From assembly GCA_029259155.1 (NCBI GenBank), contig JAPDJI010000017.1, forward strand, positions 1 through 64,000: a DNA stretch of 64,000 nt, in the 5' to 3' direction. A program made the translations under genes and the position numbers. This stretch comes from Candidatus Methanomethylicia archaeon (GTDB lineage Archaea > Thermoproteota > Methanomethylicia > Nezhaarchaeales > B40-G2). Every line of letters begins with the position of its first letter. The stretch's first letter is position 1. The notes below the pieces were generated by a model that saw only the letters and a program-made list of their open reading frames with translations, did not search any database and was not told where the DNA came from. This document shows, piece after piece, positions 16,397 to 29,352 of this stretch.

Positions 16397-16478
16397 TTAA
16401 GCCTCCGAGGAGTTGGAGGAGGGGTTACCTCTCAAACTTAAATATATATCTCCCTACGTGCAGCTTAGGGGTTAAGGA

Positions 16479-17759
16479 GTGTCTCCTTCAACTAAGACTT
16501 CCAGGCTGCCAGGTTTCCATAAACTACCACTCCCTCAGAGGCTGGAGATAGTTAAGGAGTTTGCCGGCTTATCTGATGAGGAGGTTAAGCTGCTAATTGC
16601 TGAGGCAGGGCTTAAACTTGAAGTTGCGGATAGGATGGTGGAGAACGTAATAGGCCTCATGCCGCTACCCCTCGGAGTAGCGGTAAACTTCTTGATCAAC
16701 GGCAAGGACTTCCTCGTACCCATGTGTATAGAGGAGCCCTCTGTGATAGCTGCTGCCAGCAACGCTGCTAGGATGGCTAGGGTTAAAGGAGGATTTAAGG
16801 CAGGCTCCACCGCCCCCGTCATGATCGGGCAGATACAGGTAGTGGACTTACCTAATCCCTTTGAAGCTATGTTACGGGTCCTTAGAGCTAGGGAGGAGGT
16901 CCTTGAGGCTGTTAACCGAAAAGACCCTGTCCTCGTTAAGTTAGGTGGTGGGGCGAGGGACCTTACGGCTAAGGTGCTGGATACTGTTGCTGGCTACATG
17001 TTAATCGTCGAGCTCCACGTTGACGTGAGGGACGCCATGGGGGCTAACGTCGTTAATACCATGTGTGAAGCTGCTGCCCCCTTAATCGAGGACTTAACTG
17101 GAGGTAAAGTGCTTCTACGTATCTTAACAAATTTGGCCACGGAGAGGCTGGCATGGGCAGAAGCCGTATTTGATAAAGAGGTGATAGGAGGCCCCGAAGT
17201 GGTGGAAGCCGTGTTGAAAGCCCATGCCTTCGCCCTAGCTGACCCTTATAGGGCAGCTACACACAATAAAGGCATCATGAATGGGATAGTAGCGGTGGCT
17301 CTAGCTACGGGTAACGATACAAGGGCGCTTGAAGCTGGAGCACACGCTTACGCCGCGCGTACGGGGCGCTATCAGCCCTTAACTCATTGGTGGAGGACAG
17401 CGGAAGGAGACTTAGCTGGAAGAATAGAGCTGCCACTGGCGGTAGGCGTAGTAGGCGGTGCAACTGGAGTGCACCCTATAGCCAAGATAGCAAGGAAAAT
17501 ACTTGGAGTAACCACAGCACAGGAGCTAGCTGAGGTCATGGCTTCCGTCGGCCTAGCGCAAAACTTCGCTGCTCTAAGAGCCTTAGCCACCGAAGGCATA
17601 CAGCGTGGCCACATGAAACTACACGCAAGAAACCTAGCCATCGCTGCAGGCGCCACAGGTGAACTCATAGACCTCGTTGCTCGGAGGATGGTGGAGGAAG
17701 GCAACATAAGGCTAGACCGCGCCCGAGAGATACTCGAAGACCTTAAAACCAAGGCTTAG
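16479..17759 (+). CDS. mvaA: HMG-CoA reductase, class II
   Basis: ENVIG, EEPSVIAA, DAMGAN, THNKGIMNG, GLAQNFAALRAL.TEGIQRGHMKLH. Confidence 0.92.
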   Translation: MSPSTKTSRLPGFHKLPLPQRLEIVKEFAGLSDEEVKLLIAEAGLKLEVADRMVENVIGLMPLPLGVAVNFLINGKDFLVPMCIEEPSVIAAASNAARMARVKGGFKAGSTAPVMIGQIQVVDLPNPFEAMLRVLRAREEVLEAVNRKDPVLVKLGGGARDLTAKVLDTVAGYMLIVELHVDVRDAMGANVVNTMCEAAAPLIEDLTGGKVLLRILTNLATERLAWAEAVFDKEVIGGPEVVEAVLKAHAFALADPYRAATHNKGIMNGIVAVALATGNDTRALEAGAHAYAARTGRYQPLTHWWRTAEGDLAGRIELPLAVGVVGGATGVHPIAKIARKILGVTTAQELAEVMASVGLAQNFAALRALATEGIQRGHMKLHARNLAIAAGATGELIDLVARRMVEEGNIRLDRAREILEDLKTKA

Positions 17760-17943
17760 TCGCTTCCATCCACCTCAAGACCACCCATTTAAAATTTAAA
17801 TAAGCTAGTAAAAAATGATGATGTGTCAACCCGCCATAAATTAAAAGAGCTTCTAAAGCCACAAAACTACGATTTAAAGTAACAAAGCCCAAGAACTAAG
17901 TAAAACAAATAAAAACTAAATCATTTCTAAATGAGAAACCTTC

Positions 17944-18006
17944 AAAAAAAGCTTATTTCCAAGAAAAAACCCTAAAAAACGTTAAAAAACAGAAAAAAGA
18001 GAAAAA
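17944..18006. repeat. Helically phased A-tracts
   Basis: A5-A7 runs start at 17944, 17964, 17974, 17984, 17993 and 18002. Confidence 0.75.
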
Positions 18007-18069
18007 TTCTATGTAATTTTTCTTCAAATTATTTTCAGTCTATCCTTCTTTAACCAACCATATACTTAA

Positions 18070-18083
18070 CGAAATGCTTATAT
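18070..18083 (+). promoter_or_regulatory. BRE/TATA promoter of cren7
   Basis: CGAAATGC followed by TTATAT; GAGGTGA RBS at 18110-18116. Confidence 0.6.
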
Positions 18084-18123
18084 CATACGAAGGTCGAAAA
18101 ACCATCACAGAGGTGAAACACGC

Positions 18124-18264
18124 ATGCCCAAGTGTCCAAAATGTGGAGCTGATGTAGCCACTCCAACCAAGAAATGGACCCTAGCACCCAAAGGCCGCAA
18201 GCCAGTCACAATAGGCCTATTCAAGTGTCCTAATGGGCATTTCTTTAGAGCAGGCGTTAAGTAG
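18124..18264 (+). CDS. cren7: Cren7-like chromatin protein, zinc-ribbon variant (46 aa, absent from ORF track)
   Basis: Hand translation [46 protein letters not shown]; W-x-LAPKGRK-x-V-x-IGLFK..G..FR is the Cren7 core; RBS, TATA and T7 terminator all present. Confidence 0.88.
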
Positions 18265-18282
18265 GATTAACTTACCATACAT

Positions 18283-18292
18283 CCCTTTTTTT
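18283..18292 (+). terminator. Oligo-T terminator of cren7
   Basis: CCCTTTTTTT about 20 nt after the stop codon. Confidence 0.6.
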
Positions 18293-18406
18293 ATGGATTT
18301 ACATGAGGCCTGAAGCAGCAGGTAGCCTAAACCACGCGTGGAGTGTCCTTCGACACTACAGGCCTCTACCAACGCCTCAACGCAGAGATGTCTAAGGAGC
18401 TGTTCC

Positions 18407-19474
18407 TCAAGGCCCCTCCCGCCTCCGCCTAGCCTGGGCTTTTGACCTCTGCTTGACCCCGGCCTCGGCCAGCTGCTTAGAGTGCCATACACAGTGGTCT
18501 ACGAGCCTCCCCACCTCCTCTACGAGGGAGCGAGCAGCCTCCACCCCCCAGGGCTGGATGGCTAAGCGAGCTGCTCGAAGTAGAGCCTCTGCCTTGAGGA
18601 GCTTCTCGTAGTGCCTGGTCCTAGGGGCCACCTCCTCTAGGAAGCGTAAGGCGTGGCAGTCGGTTAAGCCGAGCGTGTGGCTGACCACCACGTCCCCGCC
18701 CCTCTCCCTAGGCTTGGACACCGAGTGGTCTACCTCGAAGCCCCTCTCTAGGAGCCCCCTCCAAGCGGGCTCCACGAGGCCCCAGTCGTCGTTGATTAGC
18801 TCAACCCTAACCTTGAGGCCCGACCGCGTAAACCAAGCCTTCAAGCTACTCTCCCCCTCGAAGAAGCTGGTCATGAACTCCCAGAACTGCTCGTCGTCGC
18901 TCACGTCCAGCGTCAGGGGCTCAGCTAGGAAGGTGAAGCTCTCGTCGAGGAGTATGCTTATCCGCCACTCGTACTGGCCGGTCTTACGGTTGTAGAAGGG
19001 GAGCTTGTTGAAGTGCTCAGTGTACGGCCTGAATAGCTCGTGGAACGCCTGTATTAGCCATGGGTTGGGGGTGGAGGTGGTGACCTCTACTTGGCCGTGG
19101 TGGCGCCTGGCGTGGCCTTCGGCCGCTACGAGGCAGTGTAGGCGTACGCGCTTGACTGGGTCTCCGTCGAAGGGCTTCTTGGCGAAGCGGGTCAGCTTAG
19201 CCTTCAACGCCTCTAGGCGAGGGCGTCTAGCTACACCCAGCCTCTCCATCATCCGCCTAAGCCCCCTGCCGTCCACGCCCAGTAGGCGGGCGATGTCAGA
19301 GCTGCTTAGCCCAGCCCGCCAGTATAGGTCGTTGAGAAGGGCTGCTAGGCGCTGGTCTCCGCTTAGGTCTAGGCGCTCCACCGCTCGCCTAGCCTCCTCG
19401 CTCAGCAGGCGTAGCACGTCCTCCGACACCTTCAACACCCTACGCCCAGCCCGGCTAAGCCGCAGCTCAGCCAC
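18407..19474 (-). CDS. HTH plus double-motif LAGLIDADG homing endonuclease-like protein
   Basis: LYWRAGLSSSDIARLLGV HTH; degenerate LAGLIDADG helices LHCLVAAEG and FMTSFFEGES. Confidence 0.65.
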   Translation of the reverse strand: MAELRLSRAGRRVLKVSEDVLRLLSEEARRAVERLDLSGDQRLAALLNDLYWRAGLSSSDIARLLGVDGRGLRRMMERLGVARRPRLEALKAKLTRFAKKPFDGDPVKRVRLHCLVAAEGHARRHHGQVEVTTSTPNPWLIQAFHELFRPYTEHFNKLPFYNRKTGQYEWRISILLDESFTFLAEPLTLDVSDDEQFWEFMTSFFEGESSLKAWFTRSGLKVRVELINDDWGLVEPAWRGLLERGFEVDHSVSKPRERGGDVVVSHTLGLTDCHALRFLEEVAPRTRHYEKLLKAEALLRAARLAIQPWGVEAARSLVEEVGRLVDHCVWHSKQLAEAGVKQRSKAQARRRREGP

Positions 19475-19919
19475 GCCCAGCCACCTCCTCCCTAAGCCAT
19501 GACTCGAAGCTGGATAGGCTGTGGAAGGCGCGGTCGACGCTTCGAAGCACTAGGCGACAGCGCTCGCGAAGCAGGGCCTCGTCAGCCCTAGGGGCCTCCA
19601 CCAAGGCCAGCCCTAGCGCCCCAGGCCTAGCCACCCTCAACGACCTAAACTTGAACTCGATGAAAGCCGCCTTGCGGACAGCCTCGTCAACCCCGCGGAA
19701 CCCAGGCTTCAAGCTAAGGCAGCACTCCAAGAACCCCTCACGGCCGCCCAGCTCAAGCCTAAAATCATAGAACAGCCTCCACCCACCGATGTCCACGGGA
19801 AAGTCCCGCTGAAACACCACGCCGAACTCCTCCAACACCGACATCACAGCCTCCTCCTGCCAAGTAGGCCCCACACAGCGCCTAGCACGGACAACCCAGC
19901 TAGACAAGCCACCACCCAC
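19467..19919 (-). CDS. PD-(D/E)XK superfamily (DUF559/Vsr-like) nuclease
   Basis: TWQEEAV...L...G..F.R.F, YDF, FLEC pattern; 8-nt overlap with the downstream LAGLIDADG gene. Confidence 0.5.
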   Translation of the reverse strand: MGGGLSSWVVRARRCVGPTWQEEAVMSVLEEFGVVFQRDFPVDIGGWRLFYDFRLELGGREGFLECCLSLKPGFRGVDEAVRKAAFIEFKFRSLRVARPGALGLALVEAPRADEALLRERCRLVLRSVDRAFHSLSSFESWLREEVAGRG

Positions 19920-19978
19920 CAGCCCGTCGGGGAAAGATATTTAAGCTCTGCGGAGAAAGTATTTAGTCTGTGTACTTT

Positions 19979-21619
19979 ATGTCGGTTCAGCGCGTCCTCG
20001 AGGAGCTTAAGCGAAGAGGCCGGGCCACGGCGAGCGAGCTGGCCGTGGCGCTCGGGCTTAGCCGGAACTGGGTGTGCGCCTGCCTCAAGGACCTAGAGGC
20101 CCGAGGCCTGGTTAGGGCTGTGGAGGTGGCCAGCGGGCGCCGCGGTAGGCCTAGGAGGCTGTACTGCGTTGAGGAGCCGCCGAGCTTCCTCGAGGAGAAT
20201 TGCCGTAGCTGCGCGCTGTTCCACCCTGTAGATGGGTGTAGGCTTGGTCGAGGCGCGGCGGCTGGCTCGACTGCCTGCGAGCTCTACGTGCCGCGTAGGC
20301 GGGTGTTCCATGCCTGGAGGCTTCGCCGAGCCGTCAAGGGCTACCTATGCCTCGTCTGCGGCAAGCCAGCTGTGCCGCGCCCCCCTTCGCTCAACCCTTC
20401 CTTCTGCCTCAACTGCTTGACCAGCTACCGCTTAGCCTACTGGAGGCACGGCGACCCTAGGATACGCGTTAGGCCGGGCGTCGAGGACCTGGTTAAGGAG
20501 AGGGGCGGCGTGGCGGTCGAGGCCTCCCTCGACGACCTCCCCAAGGCCAGGCTGTTCGTAGGCGACCTGGACCGCGTCGTGGTTGAAGGCGTGGCCTTGA
20601 TCGTGGAGACGAGGCTGCCCGTAGGCGGCGTCAGGAGGCTCGTCTACCGCTTAGACGAGGTGGAGCGTAGGGTGCTCTACTATCGATCGCGCCAGGTCGA
20701 GGAGGCTCAGCGAGACCTGGACGAGCTGGCTGAGCTAGGCTTTCAGCTAGTTAAGTCCCCGCCCCCTGAGCCAGCTGGGCTCTACGAGGCCTTGGTGAGC
20801 CGCGGCGAGCGAAGCGAGGAGGCTAGGAGGCTTCTATGGCTCGGCAACGCGGTGAGCCACTACGTGGCCTGCTGTAGGCTAGCTAGACTCTACGGAGTGG
20901 GCGTTGAGCCTCCGCTACACTACCTTCGAAGGGCGTTGAGGGAGGCGGACTACGGGTTTCGCTACGAGTCAGCCATAATGAGGGCCTACTGGGCCGCCTA
21001 CAAGGAGGCCCTACGTAGACTAGGCTTCGAAGCCTCCAGCCGAGTTAAGGCGAGGCTCCCCCGCGAGGAGGCCTTGACGCCGCGGCGAGCCATAGCCCCA
21101 GCCTACGACCCAGTCAGCTCCATGATAAACTACGTGCACTCGAGAATCCTGAGAGCCGCTGAGGCCTTGGAGCCAGGCCTAGCCGGCCCCATCGGGCTGA
21201 TCCATAGGTTCTCGAAGGCTGGGAAGTGGTGCCGTAAGCACGCCATGTACCTAGACGCCACTGAGCCCTTGAAGGCAGTGGGCAGGGAGCTACTGCTCGA
21301 CGCCTTGAAGCGCGGCGACGTGGACCTAGGCGGCGTCGAGGAGGTTAAGGGCAGCCTTGGAGGGAGGCTCTACGCCTTAACGTCTCGAGCCGCCCAGGCC
21401 TTGGAACTAAGGGTGGTTAAGCCTAGCCTGGAGATGGAGTTGATCTACGCTGGGCGCTTGACCACGGCCCGCGTAGCCTTAGAGGAGGCCCTTAGGGGGT
21501 TGAGGAGGCTTGAGGGCTTCAAGCCACTGGTCTTCGCAACTAGGGAGGACCTAGACGACGTCGAGTACGCCCTAAGGGGCTATGGAGAGGCCTTAAGCTC
21601 GCTCCTAGGCGAAGCATAG
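19979..21619 (+). CDS. cas1: Solo Cas1-like integrase with N-terminal wHTH and two Cys4 modules
   Basis: YESAIMRAYW, DPVSSMINY, GLIH and YLDATEPLK match the Cas1 E/H/D-E catalytic motifs; a beta-rich Cas1-like N-domain precedes them; ATG at 19979 (ORF track starts at 19970). Confidence 0.75.
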   Translation: MSVQRVLEELKRRGRATASELAVALGLSRNWVCACLKDLEARGLVRAVEVASGRRGRPRRLYCVEEPPSFLEENCRSCALFHPVDGCRLGRGAAAGSTACELYVPRRRVFHAWRLRRAVKGYLCLVCGKPAVPRPPSLNPSFCLNCLTSYRLAYWRHGDPRIRVRPGVEDLVKERGGVAVEASLDDLPKARLFVGDLDRVVVEGVALIVETRLPVGGVRRLVYRLDEVERRVLYYRSRQVEEAQRDLDELAELGFQLVKSPPPEPAGLYEALVSRGERSEEARRLLWLGNAVSHYVACCRLARLYGVGVEPPLHYLRRALREADYGFRYESAIMRAYWAAYKEALRRLGFEASSRVKARLPREEALTPRRAIAPAYDPVSSMINYVHSRILRAAEALEPGLAGPIGLIHRFSKAGKWCRKHAMYLDATEPLKAVGRELLLDALKRGDVDLGGVEEVKGSLGGRLYALTSRAAQALELRVVKPSLEMELIYAGRLTTARVALEEALRGLRRLEGFKPLVFATREDLDDVEYALRGYGEALSSLLGEA

Positions 21620-21703
21620 AGGCCCAGTTGAGGCTGCTTGAAGCGGCATGCACGACCATTGTCCACGAGCCTTCCGTGAACAGGGGCTGGGCATGGAGGC
21701 TAG

Positions 21704-21895
21704 GTGCACAGGTATGGAGAGGAATGCGTTGAGCAAGGGCATGTATATGATCCCGCCCCTATGCCTATGAAGTGGGCGGCGATGGCTAATAGGAGGCCGC
21801 TGCCTAGGGAGGAGCTGGTCAGCGGAATGGCCGAGGTAGTGGAGTACGGCGTGGCCGTGGACCCCCCTTCAATCTTCAGGGGTGGAGTAAAATAA
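21704..21895 (+). pseudogene. Possible gene fragment at the right side of the island
   Basis: 63-aa GC-rich ORF with no recognisable domain, followed by a terminator. Confidence 0.25.
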
Positions 21896-21900
21896 GCGTG

Positions 21901-21931
21901 GCCACTGCTCAATAATGTGGCTTTTCTTTTT
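21901..21931 (+). terminator. Hairpin plus T-tract terminator
   Basis: GCCAC-N11-GTGGC followed by TTTTCTTTTT. Confidence 0.55.
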
Positions 21932-22128
21932 ATATTTCCACACCAAACAACACGATCGGACCTCGGCTACAAGCCTCTGTTAAGGTTTCTTAAGACAGTT
22001 CTTTGTGGAGTTGAAGCTCACACACCTAGGTTCCTTGTCAGCAGTGAGGTTTAGATCGCGCGACTATCCTTCCTAGGAGTGGAAATACTTATTGAAGGAA
22101 GCTGCGATTAAGATACGATGGATGATTT

Positions 22129-22551
22129 TTATATTAGGTTTTTCATGAATAATGCGCGTTGAGCTTTAATGAGGTTTTCAAGCGTGGACGAATTGATGAG
22201 GTTTAGGACGGCTTTTCCGATGGCGAGGAAGCCTGCTGGGATTAGAGCTCCCGCGAGGATGATGGATGATAGCCATTTAGGTGAATCTGTCAATAGGTGG
22301 CCCAGTGGGTTTTCTTCTGGGTCGTGTATATCCCAGTGTATCCTATAATGATCTTTGAACTCGACGATGTGTAGGCTCCTCCCGTCCTTAAGCTTCATCC
22401 TGTAGTCTGCTATCTGTCCTCTTGGTATTCCCAGACTACGTTTAAAGAACGTGGTTTGCGTGGGGTGAGGGACAAGCTGTTTATCGACTATGACTTCTTC
22501 GTGCTCTCTTTTCCTTAAAACCTCTTCAGCTATACTCGACCAGTCCATCAA
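22129..22551 (-). CDS. Conserved archaeal hypothetical protein with a C-terminal TM helix
   Basis: GQIADYR, DGR.LH..E..DHY..HWD..DP...PLGHL..D.P then a hydrophobic stretch. Confidence 0.6.
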   Translation of the reverse strand: MMDWSSIAEEVLRKREHEEVIVDKQLVPHPTQTTFFKRSLGIPRGQIADYRMKLKDGRSLHIVEFKDHYRIHWDIHDPEENPLGHLLTDSPKWLSSIILAGALIPAGFLAIGKAVLNLINSSTLENLIKAQRALFMKNLI

Positions 22552-22716
22552 GTGGCTTACACCTCTTCCACATAAAAGCTTAACGTCGAGCGTAAGGGTT
22601 TATCTCTCCTCAGCTCTCCTCCTGTATGGGGGGATGATTTGGGAGGTGAATACTGAGGGTGATGAGCTTCAAGCTATGACCCCCTTTATGAAAGGACGTG
22701 TAGCGGAGGAGGATCG

Positions 22717-23865
22717 ATGGAGAGGGGAAGAGCATCCTTATTCTATGCTTTGAACAACCTCTCCTGGTTTGTCTGCCTAGCTGCTTTTCATGCGGCGCTG
22801 CTCCTTGAAGCTTCAAGACCGAGCTTTGCGCTCGCCTCAGTGGCTTTAGGTCTATCTGCGGTGTTCTTCCTTTTCGTAGGGATGATCCTCAGACCTACCT
22901 TGAAGCGGTCGATAGTCTATATATTGGCTGGAAGCTTCATTTCAGCTCTCTCTCCTTGGATAGTGAATGCTCCACCGCTTCTTCTCGCATCTTTATATTT
23001 TTTAACCGGGTTAGTCGGGACCTTATTCCTGTCCCATTCTATCTCAAACTTCCTTGAGTACACGAGCTTTGAGGATAGGGGGATTAAATCTGGGTTTTTC
23101 TTAGCGTTTTGCTCTATCTGTATTATCCTCGTAAGCGTGGCTTTTCGATGGCATTTAATTACCGCGCTCGTACTAGCTTTATATCGACTATCAAGTTTAG
23201 TAGCGGTTAAAGCGGTTGAGTATGCGCCGCTTGGAGCGTGGAGCCAAGAGGCGGTAGCACATAGTCAAAGAGGGTTGTTTATCTTCATTATTTGCTGGCT
23301 CCTCTTTTTAGTCTCTGACATCTTCGTTTATAGCTCCATTCCCATCTACGAGCCTAGCGGCGTTTTCAAGCAACAACATCTCCTGTCGGTAGCAGTATCG
23401 GCTTTTTCCGTGGTGGTTGGAGGTACTTTAATGGATAGGATGGGCAGGAAACTACCCATTATCTTGGCGTGCTCTACCTTAGGCATACTATACACGCTCC
23501 TCATCTTCCTCCCTCAGTCAGCTGTACCAGCCATACTGGTAGCGTCGGAGATTCCATGGGGCTTCCTCTTCGTTTTCTACATGTTAATCCTTCCAGGCGA
23601 TCTTCTTAGCGGCCGCGCTAAAGAAACGGTGATATGTTTCTTCTTATCGACCTACTGGATAAAATTAATGTTAAGGTTCACTGAGCTAACCGTAGGGTGG
23701 ATTGGTCTCTCAGAGATAGGGCCCTTAACCGAATTGCTTGGAAGCTTCCTACTCTTTGTCTCGGTTCCTCTACTATTAATTTCTCCTGAGACTCTTCCGC
23801 TACGTATTGTAGAGAAGAGGAAGATGACAAAATATATAGAATGGGCTAAGCGGAAGGCATCGTAG
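22717..23865 (+). CDS. MFS-like membrane transporter
   Basis: Many hydrophobic segments, GGTLMDRMGRK motif A, PETL near the C-terminus. Confidence 0.65.
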   Translation: MERGRASLFYALNNLSWFVCLAAFHAALLLEASRPSFALASVALGLSAVFFLFVGMILRPTLKRSIVYILAGSFISALSPWIVNAPPLLLASLYFLTGLVGTLFLSHSISNFLEYTSFEDRGIKSGFFLAFCSICIILVSVAFRWHLITALVLALYRLSSLVAVKAVEYAPLGAWSQEAVAHSQRGLFIFIICWLLFLVSDIFVYSSIPIYEPSGVFKQQHLLSVAVSAFSVVVGGTLMDRMGRKLPIILACSTLGILYTLLIFLPQSAVPAILVASEIPWGFLFVFYMLILPGDLLSGRAKETVICFFLSTYWIKLMLRFTELTVGWIGLSEIGPLTELLGSFLLFVSVPLLLISPETLPLRIVEKRKMTKYIEWAKRKAS

Positions 23866-24139
23866 TGAGCACTATTGCTACTATGAGCAAAGCCCAGCCT
23901 ATGATCAATATTATACCTATGGTCTTCTTGGCCGCTGTTATGAAAGTGAGGAGTAGGTAAAGCGCGGTTAACGATACTAGTAGCGATATAGGTCCGCTAA
24001 ACTGTTCAGCTAGCTCAGGCCTAGCCTTAAACAAGGTTTGAGTTAAGAGGTTGTTTATGAGGTCCTCTAAAGCGTTGAAGGCCTGTGCTATTAGGGTGCT
24101 TATAGTACTCCAGTCGAACATATAGGCCCCTTCCACCAT
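23846..24139 (-). CDS. Small membrane protein
   Basis: Two C-terminal TM segments. Confidence 0.6.
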   Translation of the reverse strand: MVEGAYMFDWSTISTLIAQAFNALEDLINNLLTQTLFKARPELAEQFSGPISLLVSLTALYLLLTFITAAKKTIGIILIIGWALLIVAIVLTTMPSA

Positions 24140-24250
24140 TTTCTGAACTCCTATATAGACTTAATCCAATGCCAAAAGCGTGTATGGGGAAAGTTTTTAG
24201 CGTGGGTTGCCTCCTATAGGGAAGCCTCTTGTTTACGGAGGAGCCTCGGG

Positions 24251-25420
24251 ATGAAGTCGATGGGTGAGCGAAGAATAGTCATGCTTCCAGGCCCCACTTC
24301 TGTTGACCCAGCTGTGTTAAGGGCTATGAGCAGGCAGATAGAGCCACATTCTCATCCAGCGTTCATAGACAAGTATAAGAACGTACTAGAGAAACTTAGG
24401 AAGCTTATACGAACAGACGGTCAGGTATTTGCTTTTGCAGGTTCAGGCACTTTTTCGCAGGAGGTTGGTGTAGCTAATTTTGTAGAGCCTGGAGACAAGG
24501 TATTATGTCTCGTAAACGGCTTCTTTAGTGGCCGCTTTGTCGACATGGTTAAGAGACGCGGCGGCATTCCAAAGGTATTGGAGGTACCCTTCGGAGAAGG
24601 CTTTACGGCTGAGATGGTCCGAAAGGCTTTGAAGGGCGCTGGTTTTAAGGCGGTCACCGCTACCCATGTGGAGACTTCGAGTGGCGTAGTCAACCCCATA
24701 GATGAAATAGGAGAGGTAGTGAGGGAGGAAGGAGCCCTGTTTATAGTGGATACGGTGGCCTCGCTAGGTGGTATGGAGGTAAGGCAGGATGAATGGGGGA
24801 TAAACGTGAACTGTGCATGTACCCAGAAGTGTCTTGGAGCTCCACCCGGCGTCTCCATAGTATCGCTGGATAAGGAAGCCATGGAGGTGTTGAGGAAACG
24901 TGAAACTCCTGCCTCTACGTTTTACGGGGACCTTAAGGGGTGGCTTCCGGTCATAGAAGACCCTTACAACAACTATAGATCTACCCATCCTGTTAGCTTG
25001 ATCTATGCATTAGAGGAGGCCTTGAACCAGATCTTTGCTGAAGGTTTAAAGAAGAGATATAGGAGACATAAGATTATAGCTGAGGCCTTTAGGAAGGCCA
25101 TGAAGGCTATCGGGTTAAAAATACTAGCTAAACCAGGCTACGAATCTTCGACAGTTACGGCAGTGCTATACCCTGAAAAGTGCAGCATAGATGACGTTGA
25201 GTTCAGGAAGGAAGTAGAACGTCGCAAAATACTGATAGCCTACGGTTACGGTCCACTGCGAGGTAAATCCTTCAGAGTTGGACATATGGGTAGTGTGACG
25301 GCTAACGACATGCTATCGACGATAAGCGCCATAGAGGCGGCGTTAAAGAAGTTTGGCTATAAGTTCAGGTATGGAGCAGGTGTTACTGCTGCACAAAAAG
25401 TGTTGGAAAAGCTAAGGTGA
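24251..25420 (+). CDS. Class V aminotransferase (alanine-glyoxylate/serine-pyruvate type)
   Basis: MLPGPT, HVETSSG, VDTVASLGG, TQKCLGAPPG (PLP Lys), FRVGHMG. Confidence 0.9.
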   Translation: MKSMGERRIVMLPGPTSVDPAVLRAMSRQIEPHSHPAFIDKYKNVLEKLRKLIRTDGQVFAFAGSGTFSQEVGVANFVEPGDKVLCLVNGFFSGRFVDMVKRRGGIPKVLEVPFGEGFTAEMVRKALKGAGFKAVTATHVETSSGVVNPIDEIGEVVREEGALFIVDTVASLGGMEVRQDEWGINVNCACTQKCLGAPPGVSIVSLDKEAMEVLRKRETPASTFYGDLKGWLPVIEDPYNNYRSTHPVSLIYALEEALNQIFAEGLKKRYRRHKIIAEAFRKAMKAIGLKILAKPGYESSTVTAVLYPEKCSIDDVEFRKEVERRKILIAYGYGPLRGKSFRVGHMGSVTANDMLSTISAIEAALKKFGYKFRYGAGVTAAQKVLEKLR

Positions 25421-25550
25421 GTTCTAAGTTAAAAGAACGGTCCTAACGGATTTTCTCTACCATAATTGTGGTAAATTACGTAAACACGCGGACTATGCTT
25501 CGTGACCTTAACAGTATCAAGATCAAAGGCTAGAACTCGTAGACGTGGAA

Positions 25551-25612
25551 GGGCCTCAGCTACCCCAGGATCTCATTCATCACTCTACGTGCATGACTTT
25601 CCTCATCGGCCC
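25551..25612 (-). ncRNA. C/D-box methylation guide sRNA
   Basis: Minus strand reads GGGCC-g-AUGAGGA(C)-aagucaugcacg-UAGA(D')-GUGAUGA(C')-augagauccugggguag-CUGA(D)-GGCCC with a 5-bp terminal stem. Confidence 0.72.
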
Positions 25613-25634
25613 ACCACTGTCTCTACCCAACTTT

Positions 25635-27248
25635 CTAATAAACTTCCCCTTTGAATGGTGCGGAGGCCTCTGCGTAGCTTGAGGTCCATGGCTCTAACTC
25701 CTTCAAGGCGTAGGGAACCATGAATAAAACATCGCTAGCAGTAAAGTGATAGCCCTTCTCATTGGCAGCCAGATCTCCAGCCCTTCCATTAATGAAGGAG
25801 GCGGCTACGCATGCCTTAAAGGCCTCAACCCTCTGTGCCATGAAGCCAGCGATCAGCCCTGAAAGCACGTCTCCCACGCCTCCTACAGCCATCCCAGCAT
25901 TACCCGTCCTATTCACTTTGACCCTCCTTCCATCCGTCACCACTGACCTATGACCCTTTAGTATCGCAACAGCCTTGTACTTAGCAGCTAGCTTACGAGC
26001 AGCCTCTATAGCTCCTTCAAGGTTTCGAGGGACTTCCTCACCCATTAGAGCCCTGTACTCGCCTAGATGAGGGGTTAGGACCAAGTCTAGTCCTTCAACA
26101 TCGTATCCTCCTCTTCCAAGAGCCTTTAATCCATCAGCATCTATTAACACTTTAAGTTCTCTACGCTTAACTTCTTCGAGGAGCGCTCCAAGACCTTTAA
26201 CTGTATCTTCATTAAACCCTAATCCTGGACCCACCGCCACTACGTCAGCCCTATCAAGCGCGCGCTTAAGATTCTCATCAGATATTGCTGCTTCATCTAC
26301 CCAGTCTCCTCTAAGCGGAATTACGATAAGGTCTGGTGAAAAACCCTTAATGTAAGGGGAAGCTGAGCTTGGAGAGGCTATGAAAGCTAGTCCAGCTCCA
26401 GCCTTAAGTGCTGCCATTCCTGCTAACGCCGGCGCCCCTGCATATAGAGGGCTGCCGCCCACTATGAGCACTACACCGTAATCGTACTTATGGGTGTCAG
26501 CTTTTCTAGGCTTAAGTATCGACATCACGTCGCCAGGACCTATGTAAAGCTCAGCTTCCAAAGGTATACCTATGTCAGCTATTTCAAGCTCCCCGATGTA
26601 TTCCTCCCTGCCCATGAAGCCTTTCTTAGCTCTATGCATAGTGATGGTCACATGGGCCTTAAAAACACCTCGTGCAACCTCGCCTGTATCCGGGTTAAGG
26701 CCTGTCGGCACGTCTATGGCGACTTTAAGTCCCTTTGATTTATTCATGAGTTCCACCGCACTCCTCACTGGTTCCCTAAGCTCACCTCTCAAGCCTGTAC
26801 CTATGAGAGCATCTACAACCACGTCAGCGCCTATTACGAGATCTTCTAGTTCACTAAGCTGAGAAGGATCCTGAACGGTCAACGTCTGCACGGAGAGGTC
26901 CATGTTCTTAATCGCCCTCCAATTCATCCTCGCCTCCTTTGTCGTTAACTGCCGCTCGCTTCCCAGGAGGACTACGGTGACTTTAGCGCCCTTAATAGCT
27001 AGGTGCCTAGCTGCGACGAAGCCGTCTCCACCTTTATTACCGGTGCCGGCAAGTATCACTATCTTCTTATTTTCAACGTCCATTCTCTTAGCTACCGCCT
27101 CAGCCACGCTCCTCCCCGCATTCTCCATTAAAAGCTTCCTGGGAACTCCCAAGAACTCCGCGTTTATGTCGATAGCTCTGGCCTCCTCCACAGTAAGAGC
27201 TTCCTCGGATGCGGTGAATCTTAGGAGGTATTTACTCAAGCTTCTCAC
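25635..27248 (-). CDS. nnr: Bifunctional NAD(P)HX epimerase/dehydratase
   Basis: LMENAG, GNKGGDG, DALIGTG, DVPTG, GPGLG, DADGL, LTPH.GE, GGVGDVLSG. Confidence 0.93.
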   Translation of the reverse strand: MRSLSKYLLRFTASEEALTVEEARAIDINAEFLGVPRKLLMENAGRSVAEAVAKRMDVENKKIVILAGTGNKGGDGFVAARHLAIKGAKVTVVLLGSERQLTTKEARMNWRAIKNMDLSVQTLTVQDPSQLSELEDLVIGADVVVDALIGTGLRGELREPVRSAVELMNKSKGLKVAIDVPTGLNPDTGEVARGVFKAHVTITMHRAKKGFMGREEYIGELEIADIGIPLEAELYIGPGDVMSILKPRKADTHKYDYGVVLIVGGSPLYAGAPALAGMAALKAGAGLAFIASPSSASPYIKGFSPDLIVIPLRGDWVDEAAISDENLKRALDRADVVAVGPGLGFNEDTVKGLGALLEEVKRRELKVLIDADGLKALGRGGYDVEGLDLVLTPHLGEYRALMGEEVPRNLEGAIEAARKLAAKYKAVAILKGHRSVVTDGRRVKVNRTGNAGMAVGGVGDVLSGLIAGFMAQRVEAFKACVAASFINGRAGDLAANEKGYHFTASDVLFMVPYALKELEPWTSSYAEASAPFKGEVY

Positions 27249-27606
27249 CCTTAAAGACTCTCTTTATTTCTTTGGCTAGTTCCTTGAAGACGCCGTAAGC
27301 CTTTATCACCGGCGTGGTCACCAACACATCGGAGTCCTTAAGCTTTAAGGTCCGTCTATAGGTGGGCATATGAGCGTAGCATACCTGCTCCATCAACACC
27401 ACGTTTTCCCTCAGGAACTTTAAGGCTATAGACCTAGCGTCCAGGATATCGCTACATACACAGACTAAAAGACCTTCATACCAGAGCGGATTTTTACGTG
27501 AGAGATAGGCGCAGAAAGCCAAGTCTTCGACGTCGATTTCCTCTATTCCTAGTACCTTAACCTCGGCTTCTCCCCACTTAAACTTCATTTGTGCCATACG
27601 TCGCAA
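27232..27606 (-). CDS. Conserved hypothetical protein
   Basis: 124-aa ORF overlapping the nnr start; no named family. Confidence 0.55.
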   Translation of the reverse strand: MRRMAQMKFKWGEAEVKVLGIEEIDVEDLAFCAYLSRKNPLWYEGLLVCVCSDILDARSIALKFLRENVVLMEQVCYAHMPTYRRTLKLKDSDVLVTTPVIKAYGVFKELAKEIKRVFKGEKLE

Positions 27607-27733
27607 GTATATGAGTCCCTTATATTTAAGAGACTAGCTGCCTTCTACGCTGCCTTGAAGGCGCCTGAAGAGTGGCCTCAAGGGCTTCATCGGAGTTTAA
27701 GATTATAGAGACTTAGAAGGCACGGTAAAAAAG

Positions 27734-28189
27734 CTACTGAAAGGTCAAGTTGCCTTCCAGGATGGCTAAGTATAACTGTTCCTCTAGCCTGATGGTGGCG
27801 AAACCTATGATATGCCCTTGACCTGCAGGCCTAAGCAAGATCCGGGCGGCCCATCCATCCCCGACCATGTATAATACCATTGCTCCTCTACCTCTAAATC
27901 GTCCCGCTAGGCCTCTACCACCAGTGGCGGTCAGTACTTCTCCGTGTAGTTGGAGGGTGCCCTCATCTAAGTTTAACCTACCCCTTCTTCCATTCACACC
28001 AACTGCAGTTAAACAAACGGTGAGCTCAACGTCAACGGTTTCGTGTAAGCTGCCCTTCGGGGCCGCTATACCTGAAAGCTCTACGGTAACTTTTCGCTCC
28101 TCTATTCCTTGAGCTAGGACTGCGGGAACGATTAAACTTAAGGTCAATAGAGCTACTATGACGGAAACTGTTAAGCCACGCTTGTACAT
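27734..28189 (-). CDS. Secreted beta-rich protein
   Basis: MYKRG plus hydrophobic core plus AVLA signal peptide. Confidence 0.6.
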   Translation of the reverse strand: MYKRGLTVSVIVALLTLSLIVPAVLAQGIEERKVTVELSGIAAPKGSLHETVDVELTVCLTAVGVNGRRGRLNLDEGTLQLHGEVLTATGGRGLAGRFRGRGAMVLYMVGDGWAARILLRPAGQGHIIGFATIRLEEQLYLAILEGNLTFQ

Positions 28190-28270
28190 ACCAGCTCGCT
28201 ACGCTCAGGAACAAGGTGAGATAAATAGCTGAGGCACGAAGGATCTAGACGATTCGTCCACAAACCCCAT

Positions 28271-28906
28271 ATGAGGGTGGCGGGAAGGGGATGGCTAATG
28301 CTCATGGTCGCGGCTTTCTTTGGCGCTGACGCAGTGATGGAAGCTACCTGCTCAGCTATAGGTTTCCTCGTGGCTTACTATGCGTTTAAAGCCTACAGGT
28401 TCTCGGGAAACGTCTTCTTCAAGCTTCTCTACTTGGGCTTCATGGCCATATCCTCAGCTATGATCTTTAGGTCCTCCTTAATCATCATCCTCTTAAGCCT
28501 ATCCCCTGCTCCCTTCTTGACCTTTATTATAAAGGAAGCTTCCTTGATCCAGTCGTTGGTGAGGGCTTTAGGATACTTCCTTTTTATCGTCGCCTACGTT
28601 AAGCAGCTTAAAGCATCGAAAATGGAAGCCCTTGTACTTACACCTATCTTAGTGTCTCCGCTAATAGAGCTAGCTTGCATATGTATGTTGTTTTACCTAG
28701 TAGCCCACATGCTCATGCTTTTGCTCTCAACTAGGAACAGGGATCTACTTTTCATACTTTCGGGCTTTACATTGTTCTTGGCCAGCCACGCTCTTTTCTT
28801 CGCATCCATTTCATACTCTGTCCTCTACCTAGTGGGGCATGTGGTCCAGCTACTAGGTTCTCTCTGCTTCTTGACAGTGCTCGTTAGGGTGACGAAGGCT
28901 CGATGA
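28271..28906 (+). CDS. Multi-pass (about 6-7 TM) membrane protein
   Basis: Almost entirely hydrophobic helices; ATGA-coupled to the wHTH gene. Confidence 0.65.
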   Translation: MRVAGRGWLMLMVAAFFGADAVMEATCSAIGFLVAYYAFKAYRFSGNVFFKLLYLGFMAISSAMIFRSSLIIILLSLSPAPFLTFIIKEASLIQSLVRALGYFLFIVAYVKQLKASKMEALVLTPILVSPLIELACICMLFYLVAHMLMLLLSTRNRDLLFILSGFTLFLASHALFFASISYSVLYLVGHVVQLLGSLCFLTVLVRVTKAR

Positions 28907-29178
28907 AGAAGTATAGGTCTAAGTTGAAGATAATGTCAGACATGTTATCCATTATAGCTAGCGAAGGTAGGGCTGGGCCTACCAAGATAATGTATGGCGC
29001 TAACCTTTCACACGAGAGGCTTGTGAGGTATCTTAACGAACTCGAGGAACGAGGACTAATCAAGGAGGTGAAGGTTGAGGAGAGATCTTTCTACGAACTA
29101 ACCGATAAAGGCTCTTCTTTCCTAACTGAGCTAAGAAAGCTGGAAGCCTTCGCTAAGGCCTTCGGCGTGGAGCTTTAG
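28903..29178 (+). CDS. Winged-HTH regulator (COG3432/HTH_45 type)
   Basis: RSKLKI..D.L, TKIMYGANLS, YL..L...GLI, YELTDKG. Confidence 0.85.
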   Translation: MKKYRSKLKIMSDMLSIIASEGRAGPTKIMYGANLSHERLVRYLNELEERGLIKEVKVEERSFYELTDKGSSFLTELRKLEAFAKAFGVEL

Positions 29179-29352
29179 GACAGTACCATCTCACATCGCT
29201 CAACGTAGGTGTCCACGTTCACGGAGAGCCCTATGCAACCCCATACAGACTGGATTCGACTCGATCAACGCCCTATCGTTTTCATGAAAAAATCCTTTTA
29301 AGCGTCCTAACCTCTCTCACTCTCGCCTTTTACTCTGGAGGTTTAAGAGGAC

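Follow-up and report, generated by a model that had tools for sequence, protein, structure and literature searches.

A GC-rich trio of predicted DNA enzymes, one of them a divergent Cas1 relative, beside cren7 in a Methanomethylicia archaeon

The segment and its three genes

The window analysed here is a stretch of 64,000 nucleotides (nt) from a Candidatus Methanomethylicia archaeon (assembly GCA_029259155.1, contig JAPDJI010000017.1, positions 1 to 64,000), and the subject of this text is a GC-rich segment of about 3.6 kb within it, at 18300-21935, where three open reading frames (ORFs), named A, B and C, fill 18407-21619. This cassette is read as a horizontally acquired, self-contained trio of predicted DNA enzymes with its own conserved divergent promoter. 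The host genome, G000, is a metagenome-assembled genome (MAG) of 1.55 Mb in 47 contigs, 94% complete and with 2.6% contamination, and the contig of the window is its contig C1. The features of the segment and its flanks are as follows.

18124..18264, plus strand: cren7, 46 amino acids (aa) with CPKC...CPNGH cysteines, the left flank and apparent target landmark
18265..18406, unstranded: left junction, with the cren7 T-tract at 18283-18293 and then a GC-rich spacer up to the stop codon of A
18407..19474, minus strand: gene A, 355 aa, with a helix-turn-helix (HTH) at about 40-95, two LAGLIDADG domains at about 106-285 and a long C-terminal helix
19467..19919, minus strand: gene B, 150 aa, PD-(D/E)XK-like fold, overlapping A by 8 nt
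19920..19969, unstranded: putative divergent promoter/operator, with a block of about 31 nt conserved between G000 and the related genome G001
19970..21619, plus strand: gene C, 549 aa (546 aa from the ATG at 19979), with a winged HTH (wHTH) at 1-66, two Cys4 modules and a Cas1/casposase domain at about 265-528
21704..21801, minus strand: fragment of a TauE/SafE permease gene, debris, with 80% nt identity over 99 nt to C15:29200-29298 (E 6e-18)
21872..21901, plus strand: relic of the 3' end of a cren7 gene (..FRGGVK, stop), oriented as the resident cren7 is, with 23/30 nt shared with the 3' 30-mer of cren7 in the related genome G002
21901..21935, plus strand: hairpin (GCCAC...GTGGC) and T-tract, the end of the GC-rich segment by sequence and GC profile
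22129..22551, minus strand: 140-aa gene of no known family, the right flank common to G001, with a 52% identical homolog at G001:C56:244-594

The composition of the segment departs sharply from that of its surroundings. In 300-nt windows the GC content is 0.617-0.683 across 18350-21349, against 0.29-0.56 upstream and 0.44-0.51 downstream, and the rise begins near 18300, just past the T-tract of cren7. The genome has a GC content of 0.4927, with a standard deviation (sd) of 0.0295 among 3-kb windows; the 3-kb window starting at C1:18501, with 0.633, lies about 4.8 sd above it and ranks second among 2856 overlapping windows, the sole one above it being the 16S/23S rRNA operon on contig C26. The GC content of third codon positions (GC3) is 0.78, 0.74 and 0.78 in A, B and C, and 0.52, 0.45 and 0.51 in the HMG-CoA reductase (HMGR) gene, cren7 and the 140-aa gene. 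HMGR precedes cren7, the pair lying at 16479-18264, and together with the 140-aa gene and an MFS-like gene they are the neighbours of the cassette. Pfam identifies the 46-aa product of the left flank, a chromatin gene, as Cren7 (PF11520, E 2.5e-11), with a score of 43.8 bits where the cut-off is 25. By ORF list and Pfam no integrase or transposase other than C is found in the segment, and by Pfam there is no polymerase domain in its three ORFs.

Cas1 is the integrase that writes CRISPR memory, and C is a very divergent relative of it, catalytically intact as judged by its residues and fused to DNA-binding modules. The N-terminal wHTH of C is matched by Pfam MarR_2 (E 1.3e-7) and is followed by eight invariant cysteines in two groups (C78, C81, C90, C103 and C127, C130, C146, C149). 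Against the Pfam Cas1 family (PF01867) C scores 15.9 bits, below the cut-off of 22.3 (E 0.0076), and its ortholog in G001, 53% identical, scores 25.0 bits, above the cut-off; the PADLOC Cas1 profile matches C at E 2.8e-4, and an alignment profile of C matches the H..D..E block of the solved Cas1 7cr6 at E 0.043. Aligned with distant relatives, C shares E333, H412 and D429 with all of them, and at position 432 it has E where they have D. The part of PMC4046053 consulted gives the Cas1 catalytic set as E141, H208, D218 and D221 in E. coli numbering, and E333, H412, D429 and E432 of C correspond to these four residues, so that the active site appears intact. The AlphaFold2 (AF2) model of C has a predicted local distance difference test (pLDDT) score of 63 overall and is confident in residues 1-66 and about 280-530; residues 71-270, the part that bears on the N-terminal beta-strand domain of the Cas1 superfamily, have pLDDT below 50 in most stretches and are barely covered by the fold searches. 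The top Foldseek matches are the casposase 6opm (1.5e-5) and CRISPR Cas1 chains, with 7mi4, 7mi9 and 8d3l among the top fold matches, and VIA-align gives Z 17.9 to 6opm_B (root-mean-square deviation 3.4 Å, 224 residues aligned, model residues 269-527) and Z 17.2 to 4n06, every one of its top 23 rows being a Cas1 or a casposase. A search of the ESM Atlas with C returns small HTH proteins only.

In the model of A (AF2, pLDDT 88.5), two alpha-beta-beta-alpha-beta-beta-alpha units stand between a helical N-terminal HTH part and a long C-terminal helix. Foldseek matches it to E-DreI (4.5e-7) and the archaeal I-Tsp061I (9e-7), with 116 matches at E<=1e-3, and I-DmoI, I-OnuI, I-SceI and PI-PfuI are further matches. 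The acidic residues E119 and E208, which close the two LAGLIDADG motif helices, are the putative catalytic acids, as read from the motif and not from a superposition; position 119 is E, or D in homologs, and E208 is invariant in the alignment named A3 and nearly so in A6. Sequence comparison adds a match of Pfam LAGLIDADG_3 (E 0.04-0.05) in two homologs of A only, and a PDB sequence search with A gives nothing meaningful. The gene is free-standing, outside any intron or intein, and is translationally coupled to B. Judging from the conserved catalytic residues, the casposase fold match, the few differences in C between strains and the conserved promoter block described below, the enzymes A and C look active.

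For B, the model of the ESM Atlas itself has a predicted TM-score (pTM) of 0.86 and has DpnII (PF04556; TM 0.65 by query and 0.74 by target) and DUF790 as structural neighbours, and by features the Atlas scores PDDEXK_11 at 0.90; this fold call is one source of evidence, with predicted models on both sides. B has no family match in four libraries, namely Pfam, NCBIfam, PHROGs and PADLOC. In the alignment of B with its homologs a D (in FYDF or VDF) and E-C are conserved, and the K/R of E-C-x-K/R is present in the Nitrososphaerota homologs.

Parts of this had been proposed in an earlier reading of the bare sequence and its ORFs, referred to below as the sequence-only reading. The abrupt GC shift that it placed between the cren7 terminator and a hairpin with T-tract is confirmed by the 300-nt and 3-kb profiles, and the gap of about 60 bp that it saw between the divergent B and C measures 50-59 nt. 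Its calls of A as an HTH-LAGLIDADG protein and of C as a Cas1 fusion are borne out, the former by the AF2 model and Foldseek matches and the latter by the fold matches and the E-H-D-E set, and that of B as a PD-(D/E)XK protein holds at the level of fold through the neighbours of the ESM Atlas model.

Between B and C, the conserved block of about 31 nt consists of two TATA-like boxes around CTGCGGAG, and G000 and G001 have it in common despite protein identities of no more than 53-60%. Variation within populations was seen by comparing the window with L044, a 3.3-kb contig that carries an alternative allele. The intergenic region of B and C shows 1 difference in 50 nt, C differs in 7/549 codons and B in 2/150, and in the shared part of A 36/207 codons differ (25 nonsynonymous and 11 synonymous), the C-terminal half of A being entirely replaced in L044. 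The differences in A and its exchanged C-terminal half make the variable component the sequence-reading LAGLIDADG protein. The alternative A allele also appears as a loose end at 18881 in the sequencing runs X2 and X3, and variant A is carried by ENA contigs of 100 kb and 134 kb (P0023 and P0038); the cassette is thus polymorphic in natural populations.

Occurrence in metagenomes, related genera and distant archaea

The stretch or parts of it are present in 11 runs from 10 studies, of hydrothermal-vent and marine-sediment metagenomes. The JGI metagenome contig L046 spans window positions 20850-31035 at 99.56%, and two Logan contigs of run X2 span 16400-19055 and 19026-24300, so that both junctions are bridged. 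In X4, contigs diverge from the window after 18272 and 18277, and a TauE gene lying elsewhere accounts for its loose ends at 21698 and 21802; the low or zero cover and the lower summed depth over the segment in X3 and X4 say nothing on its absence or copy number.

The C family is rare. Among 1.84 billion cluster representatives there is one other full-length cluster (52% identity) and 19 weaker matches, which cover the Cas1-like end or the HTH, those scanned being marginal Cas1 matches themselves. In the class of the host, full-length C is found in 2 of 61 genomes (G000 and G001), and the B profile in the same two of 62. A search of 185,579 species genomes with the C alignment gives 18 loci, namely G001 and 17 others, of which 15 are titled Nitrososphaerota, Nitrososphaerales, Nitrosopumilales, Thaumarchaeota or uncultured archaeon, the remaining two being a 2.2-kb 'Nitrospira' contig and one 'bacterium'. 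By tblastn, 13 of the 17 distant loci have a homolog of B immediately upstream of the C-family gene and on the other strand, and L063 is a fourteenth by ORF clustering with B; the C-family proteins of these B-paired loci have 600-985 aa. In six of the 17, B is followed by a gene called F3, without a Pfam match, which has an HTH and one or two LAGLIDADG motifs of the WVAGLIQGEGC type, and the putative link between A and F3 is drawn from their common architecture, motif and gene position. These loci make B and C a conserved divergent pair and indicate that the trio recurs in a second deep lineage. There too the family is patchy: of 151 genomes that were sampled in the order of G062, it was found in 3. 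In several Nitrososphaerota MAGs the module stands beside a housekeeping block of SRP54, Pus10, KsgA, SpoU and a THUMP methyltransferase, and L061 is an apparently decayed remnant, a C of 264 aa without B or F3. On the co-occurrence that the sequence-only reading had made a check of its proposal, the trio is thus found in G001, B and C in the same two genomes of the class, and the divergent pair in 13-14 of the 17 distant loci.

Two further arrangements were seen at these loci. In G063 (C1:131946-149324; L054, L070) two modules of B and C, inverted to each other and with C proteins 72% identical, bracket the block from SRP54 to the THUMP methyltransferase, and in L065 a partial B with F3 stands at one side and B with C at the other.

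Genes like A are more widely spread in the class of the host, with 18 matches in G004, three in G001 and single weak matches in three other genomes. The G004 genes encode HTH-LAGLIDADG proteins of about 410-440 aa (L026, L030, L032, L034-L041), many of them at contig ends, and form a 1.3-1.7-kb repeat with 72-88% DNA identity between copies. Neither B nor C is found beside the G004 copies, and a small Cys-rich ORF of about 90 aa precedes each. They look like a proliferating family of free-standing homing endonucleases.

The homologous locus was compared in three genera: that of the host (g1, G000), a second one of the same family (g2, G001) and a third (g3, G002 and G003). cren7 is kept in G001, G002 and G003, nearly letter for letter. 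On contig C32 of G001 the order is HMGR, a 1438-aa gene, cren7, C (minus), B (plus) and A (plus), and the cassette proteins are 53% (C), 60% (B) and 56% (A) identical to those of the window. The end of C32 overlaps the start of contig C56 by 55 nt, and C56 carries homologs of the 140-aa gene (52%) and of the 97-aa gene of the window (67%). Together these place the cassette between cren7 and the 140-aa gene in both genomes in opposite orientations, as can be written cren7> [A< B< C>] <140aa for G000 and cren7> [C< B> A>] <140aa for G001. The cassette of G001 is not GC-rich: its GC3 is 0.52 in C, 0.58 in B and 0.64 in A, against 0.63-0.70 in the neighbours. That the GC deviations of the two hosts are opposite speaks against a single ancestral insertion that was simply passed down vertically.

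In G002 and G003 no counterpart of window positions 18300-23840 is found at the locus, and the queries used did not detect B, C or the 140-aa gene in these genomes. The sequence-only reading would have been contradicted by synteny in all relatives, and the region is absent at the locus in both genomes of the third genus. There cren7 and HMGR stand in inverted order between the same outer blocks, the HMGR-cren7 pair of g1 and g2 (window 16479-18264) being inverted relative to its outer flanks when set against g3 (L021, L022).

G001 shows additional differences at the locus. The 1438-aa gene, whose product looks secreted, is inserted between HMGR and cren7, and a minus-strand ORF of about 85 aa (L051:3-203 with L020:12326-12395), without a counterpart in the window, lies between A and the 140-aa gene. 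The spacers beside the 140-aa gene have no homology between G000 and G001.

The ends of the segment and the case for mobility

About 310 nt after gene C are debris, followed by the hairpin and the T-tract. The TauE fragment matches a site inside an intact 298-aa gene of the same genome (C15:28879-29775, Pfam TauE 3.6e-33). The cren7 relic is the best of about 3.1 million genome positions (23/30), with the resident cren7 end at 22/30 and a chance match at 21/30. With the relic at the far side, the cren7 3' end borders the cassette on both sides as a diverged direct repeat, as would be expected from integration at, or recombination through, that site, and this suggests a donor in which the cassette likewise stood next to cren7. 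The relic is not an exact duplication.

Two other candidates at this end were rejected. The 63-aa ORF at 21704-21895, taken as a second Cren7 from a MAFFT alignment, has no Pfam match, and BLASTP matches only its last 7 residues (E 0.047); its 5' part is the TauE fragment on the other strand, so that only about 30 nt (21872-21901) stand as the cren7 relic. For an RNA element after C, Rfam gives no match at E<=1 anywhere in 17700-22300, and folding of 21620-21940 yields a z of -1.78.

Taken together, the evidence establishes a rare, conserved and self-regulated trio that was imported into the genome and that stands at one and the same intergenic site of two genera, once in each orientation. Since the site is the same, the orientation opposite and the GC deviation opposite in the two genera, insertion at a preferred site is favoured, and we give a probability of roughly one half to the reading of 18300-21935 as a selfish, site-specific mobile, or recently mobile, cassette with its preferred site just 3' of cren7. 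The domains, the co-occurrence, the foreign composition, the flanks, the absence in the third genus, the cren7 relic and the polymorphism are the observations on which this reading is built, and three further points count for it: the A family can multiply alone, as seen from the G004 copies, the enzymes A and C look active, and no other integrase or transposase is found in the segment. The catalytic steps, the division of labour among A, B and C and the mobility itself are proposed by analogy with the known activities of the three folds. On this basis the LAGLIDADG enzyme A would recognise and cut the unoccupied site, the Cas1-family protein C would be positioned by its own wHTH and zinc modules, the small nuclease B would trim the ends, and C would join the 3' ends of the cassette to the target in either orientation; the wHTH of C probably also represses the common promoter. 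A more ambitious form of the proposal, which we put forward tentatively and think unlikely to hold in full, is that the trio is a new class of autonomous archaeal element, a minimal polymerase-less Cas1 homing cassette inserted without long terminal repeats, where A would open a specific site next to an essential gene and the wHTH-zinc-Cas1 integrase and the PD-(D/E)XK end-processing nuclease would insert the cassette.

Several results weigh against mobility. A repeat search of 17700-22700 pairs no arms at the ends as terminal inverted repeats (TIRs), and the inverted alignment of the ends is matched by 117/300 shuffles in G000 and 42/300 in G001; for a target-site duplication (TSD), which in casposons has about 14-15 bp, the best direct end match is 15/17 nt with one gap, reached by 8/300 shuffles. 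The cassette is single-copy in G000, and in the contigs of four runs, which drop rare forms, there is no joint across the segment of the kind left by a skip, a circle or an inversion. In G001, where L045 bridges an N-run in cren7, there are only 43 nt between the cren7 stop and the stop of C, which leaves little room for an element end. The gene debris at the right end fits recombination as well as transposition, the basic residue of E-C-x-K/R is missing in the B of G000 (ECCL) and of G001 (ECGF), the homology of A to the Nitrososphaerota F3 proteins is not significant (hhalign probability 1.7%, E 0.03), and the recurrent housekeeping context could mean long residence and not movement. The sequence-only reading had noted that neither TIRs nor a TSD were visible, which stands after the repeat search and the shuffle-controlled end alignments; of its proposal of a PolB-less casposon-like element, insertion at a preferred site is favoured, and strand transfer driven by Cas1 goes unsupported by TIRs, a significant TSD, extra copies or joints.

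The same lack of TIRs, a clear TSD and extra copies would be natural for a non-mobile accessory module, for defence against viruses or plasmids or for recombination and repair, built from a branched-DNA nuclease of Cas1 type, a PD-(D/E)XK nuclease and a LAGLIDADG protein with sequence specificity. Relatives would acquire it only passively, when DNA is taken up and enters a variable hotspot through homologous or illegitimate recombination. This is the main rival, a defence module having been the alternative named by the sequence-only reading, and we regard it as possible but on balance doubtful. Its patchy distribution, foreign composition and polymorphic populations are typical of defence islands, the debris at the border and the duplicated cren7 3' end fit Campbell-type or illegitimate recombination of imported DNA, and the stable position by housekeeping genes in the Nitrososphaerota MAGs, with the decayed remnant L061, points the same way. 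Variation is densest in A, the protein that recognises DNA, with 25 nonsynonymous and 11 synonymous changes and a swapped C-terminal half, as an arms race would produce, and the pairing of Cas1 with a PD-(D/E)XK nuclease resembles the Cas4-Cas1 adaptation module, a likeness supported by the titles of PDB matches such as 7mi4. Nevertheless, PADLOC gives weak Cas1 and HTH matches and no known system, no other defence genes flank the cassette, the Nitrososphaerota neighbours are housekeeping genes and not defence islands, and the same flanks with opposite orientation in two genera, with no other mobility gene nearby, would need an extra explanation.

Vertical inheritance from a common ancestor of g1 and g2, with inversion in place and a GC difference due to gene-specific constraints, would account for the shared flanks and for protein identities (53-60%) similar to the 52% of the flanking 140-aa gene, at a locus that is prone to rearrangement, as the inverted HMGR-cren7 pair of G002 and G003 and the 1438-aa insertion of G001 show. 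We consider it improbable: the GC3 deviations are opposite (+0.25 in G000, -0.05 to -0.15 in G001), no inverted repeats able to mediate an inversion were found, and the foreign-looking cren7 relic and TauE fragment are in G000 only. A classical casposon, that is, a self-synthesising Cas1 transposon, intact or decayed, is very improbable despite the Cas1/casposase fold and intact active site of C and despite a position at the 3' end of a conserved gene, as the parts consulted of PMC5137440 and PMC8464041 give for casposons; the 3.6-kb segment lacks PolB, TIRs and a convincing TSD, and the compact trio recurs elsewhere and is therefore not the torso of a larger element. Hardly credible is an artefact of assembly or binning in which foreign DNA was misjoined. 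The 47 contigs and 2.6% contamination of the MAG and the abrupt change in composition would allow it, but L046 and the X2 contigs independently carry the same junctions, which disposes of the chimera that the sequence-only reading had considered, and G001 has a homologous cassette at the homologous place.

Relation to known systems and neighbouring features

To our knowledge, the history of Cas1 before CRISPR is known only through casposons. As far as the consulted part of PMC4046053 and the structure 6opm go, casposons of families 1-4 resemble the cassette in a Cas1-family domain with four active-site residues and an added HTH, in a non-CRISPR setting and in a position at the 3' end of a conserved gene, and the casposase 6opm is the best structural match of C, tied with the Cas1 4n06. 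The cassette differs from them in lacking PolB, TIRs and a clear TSD, in its size of 3.6 kb and in being single-copy, and C differs in having its HTH at the N terminus, ahead of two Cys4 modules, and in its partners, which are LAGLIDADG and PD-(D/E)XK-like proteins and not PolB and HNH; by sequence, the C of the window lies below the Pfam threshold of the Cas1 family. The 'family 5 casposases' proposed from hot springs are, in the part of the report consulted, Cas1 homologs outside CRISPR, mostly without PolB and regarded as non-self-replicating transposons (PMC9755687). They are like the cassette in being non-CRISPR and PolB-less and in their thermal setting, and are set apart by description, since that part of the report gives TIRs in five contigs and variable hypothetical neighbours and no LAGLIDADG/PD-(D/E)XK partnership or HTH. 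The Cas1-solo group 1 of Methanomicrobiales, according to the consulted part of PMC4046053, is likewise a stand-alone Cas1 homolog, without signs of a transposon and with an incomplete catalytic set, whereas C keeps all four catalytic residues.

The Cas4-Cas1(-Cas2) adaptation module (7mi4, 7mi9, 8d3l) likewise places a Cas1-fold integrase beside a small nuclease of the PD-(D/E)XK fold. Unlike it, the cassette is without Cas2, a CRISPR array or other cas genes, and B has no sequence match to Cas4 families; no tandem or spaced repeats of a CRISPR array were found in the 64-kb window, and no Pfam match to a canonical Cas1 in the 94%-complete genome. With the LAGLIDADG homing endonucleases I-DmoI, I-Tsp061I, E-DreI and I-OnuI, A shares the monomeric double fold and both acidic motif residues, and it differs from them in its extra N-terminal HTH and long C-terminal helix, its coupling to a nuclease gene, its Cas1 partner and the absence of an intron or intein. 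In the open-access literature and bioRxiv, supplements excluded, no description was found of a trio of Cas1, LAGLIDADG and PD-(D/E)XK proteins, the consulted parts of PMC4046053, PMC9755687, PMC12669027 and PMC6563490 included, and no open-access paper that brings together Cas1, LAGLIDADG and Thaumarchaeota was found.

The significance of the trio lies in a Cas1 relative that is genetically locked to B, as seen in 13-14 of 17 distant loci, and in many cases also to a LAGLIDADG enzyme, with no polymerase, Cas2 or array, in a hydrothermal lineage of Thermoproteota as well as in soil Nitrososphaerota. If the cassette moves, Cas1 can mobilise a minimal element that does not synthesise itself, and the partnership of Cas1 with a PD-(D/E)XK protein exists outside CRISPR; if it does not move, it would be a new defence or repair system built around Cas1. 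The homing-cassette proposal, if true, would supply the link that is missing among casposons, homing endonuclease genes and the Cas4-Cas1 adaptation module. The question can be tested at the bench, since the three proteins are small and soluble and the 3' flank of cren7 offers a defined candidate target.

Additional features were seen in the surroundings of the cassette and elsewhere in the genome. The 46-aa Cren7, with its CPKC...CPNGH cysteines, is possibly a zinc-ribbon variant of this protein. Between the 140-aa and 97-aa genes, at 22717-23865, the window encodes a 382-aa membrane protein with a weak MFS_1 match (E 0.005), which has no counterpart at the same place in G001 and relatives only 25-30% identical elsewhere in G002 and G003, so its gene may be a second, older insertion. 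A second protein-coding stretch with raised GC (0.54-0.62), more than 11 kb long, lies at G000:C12:1-11500 (L073).

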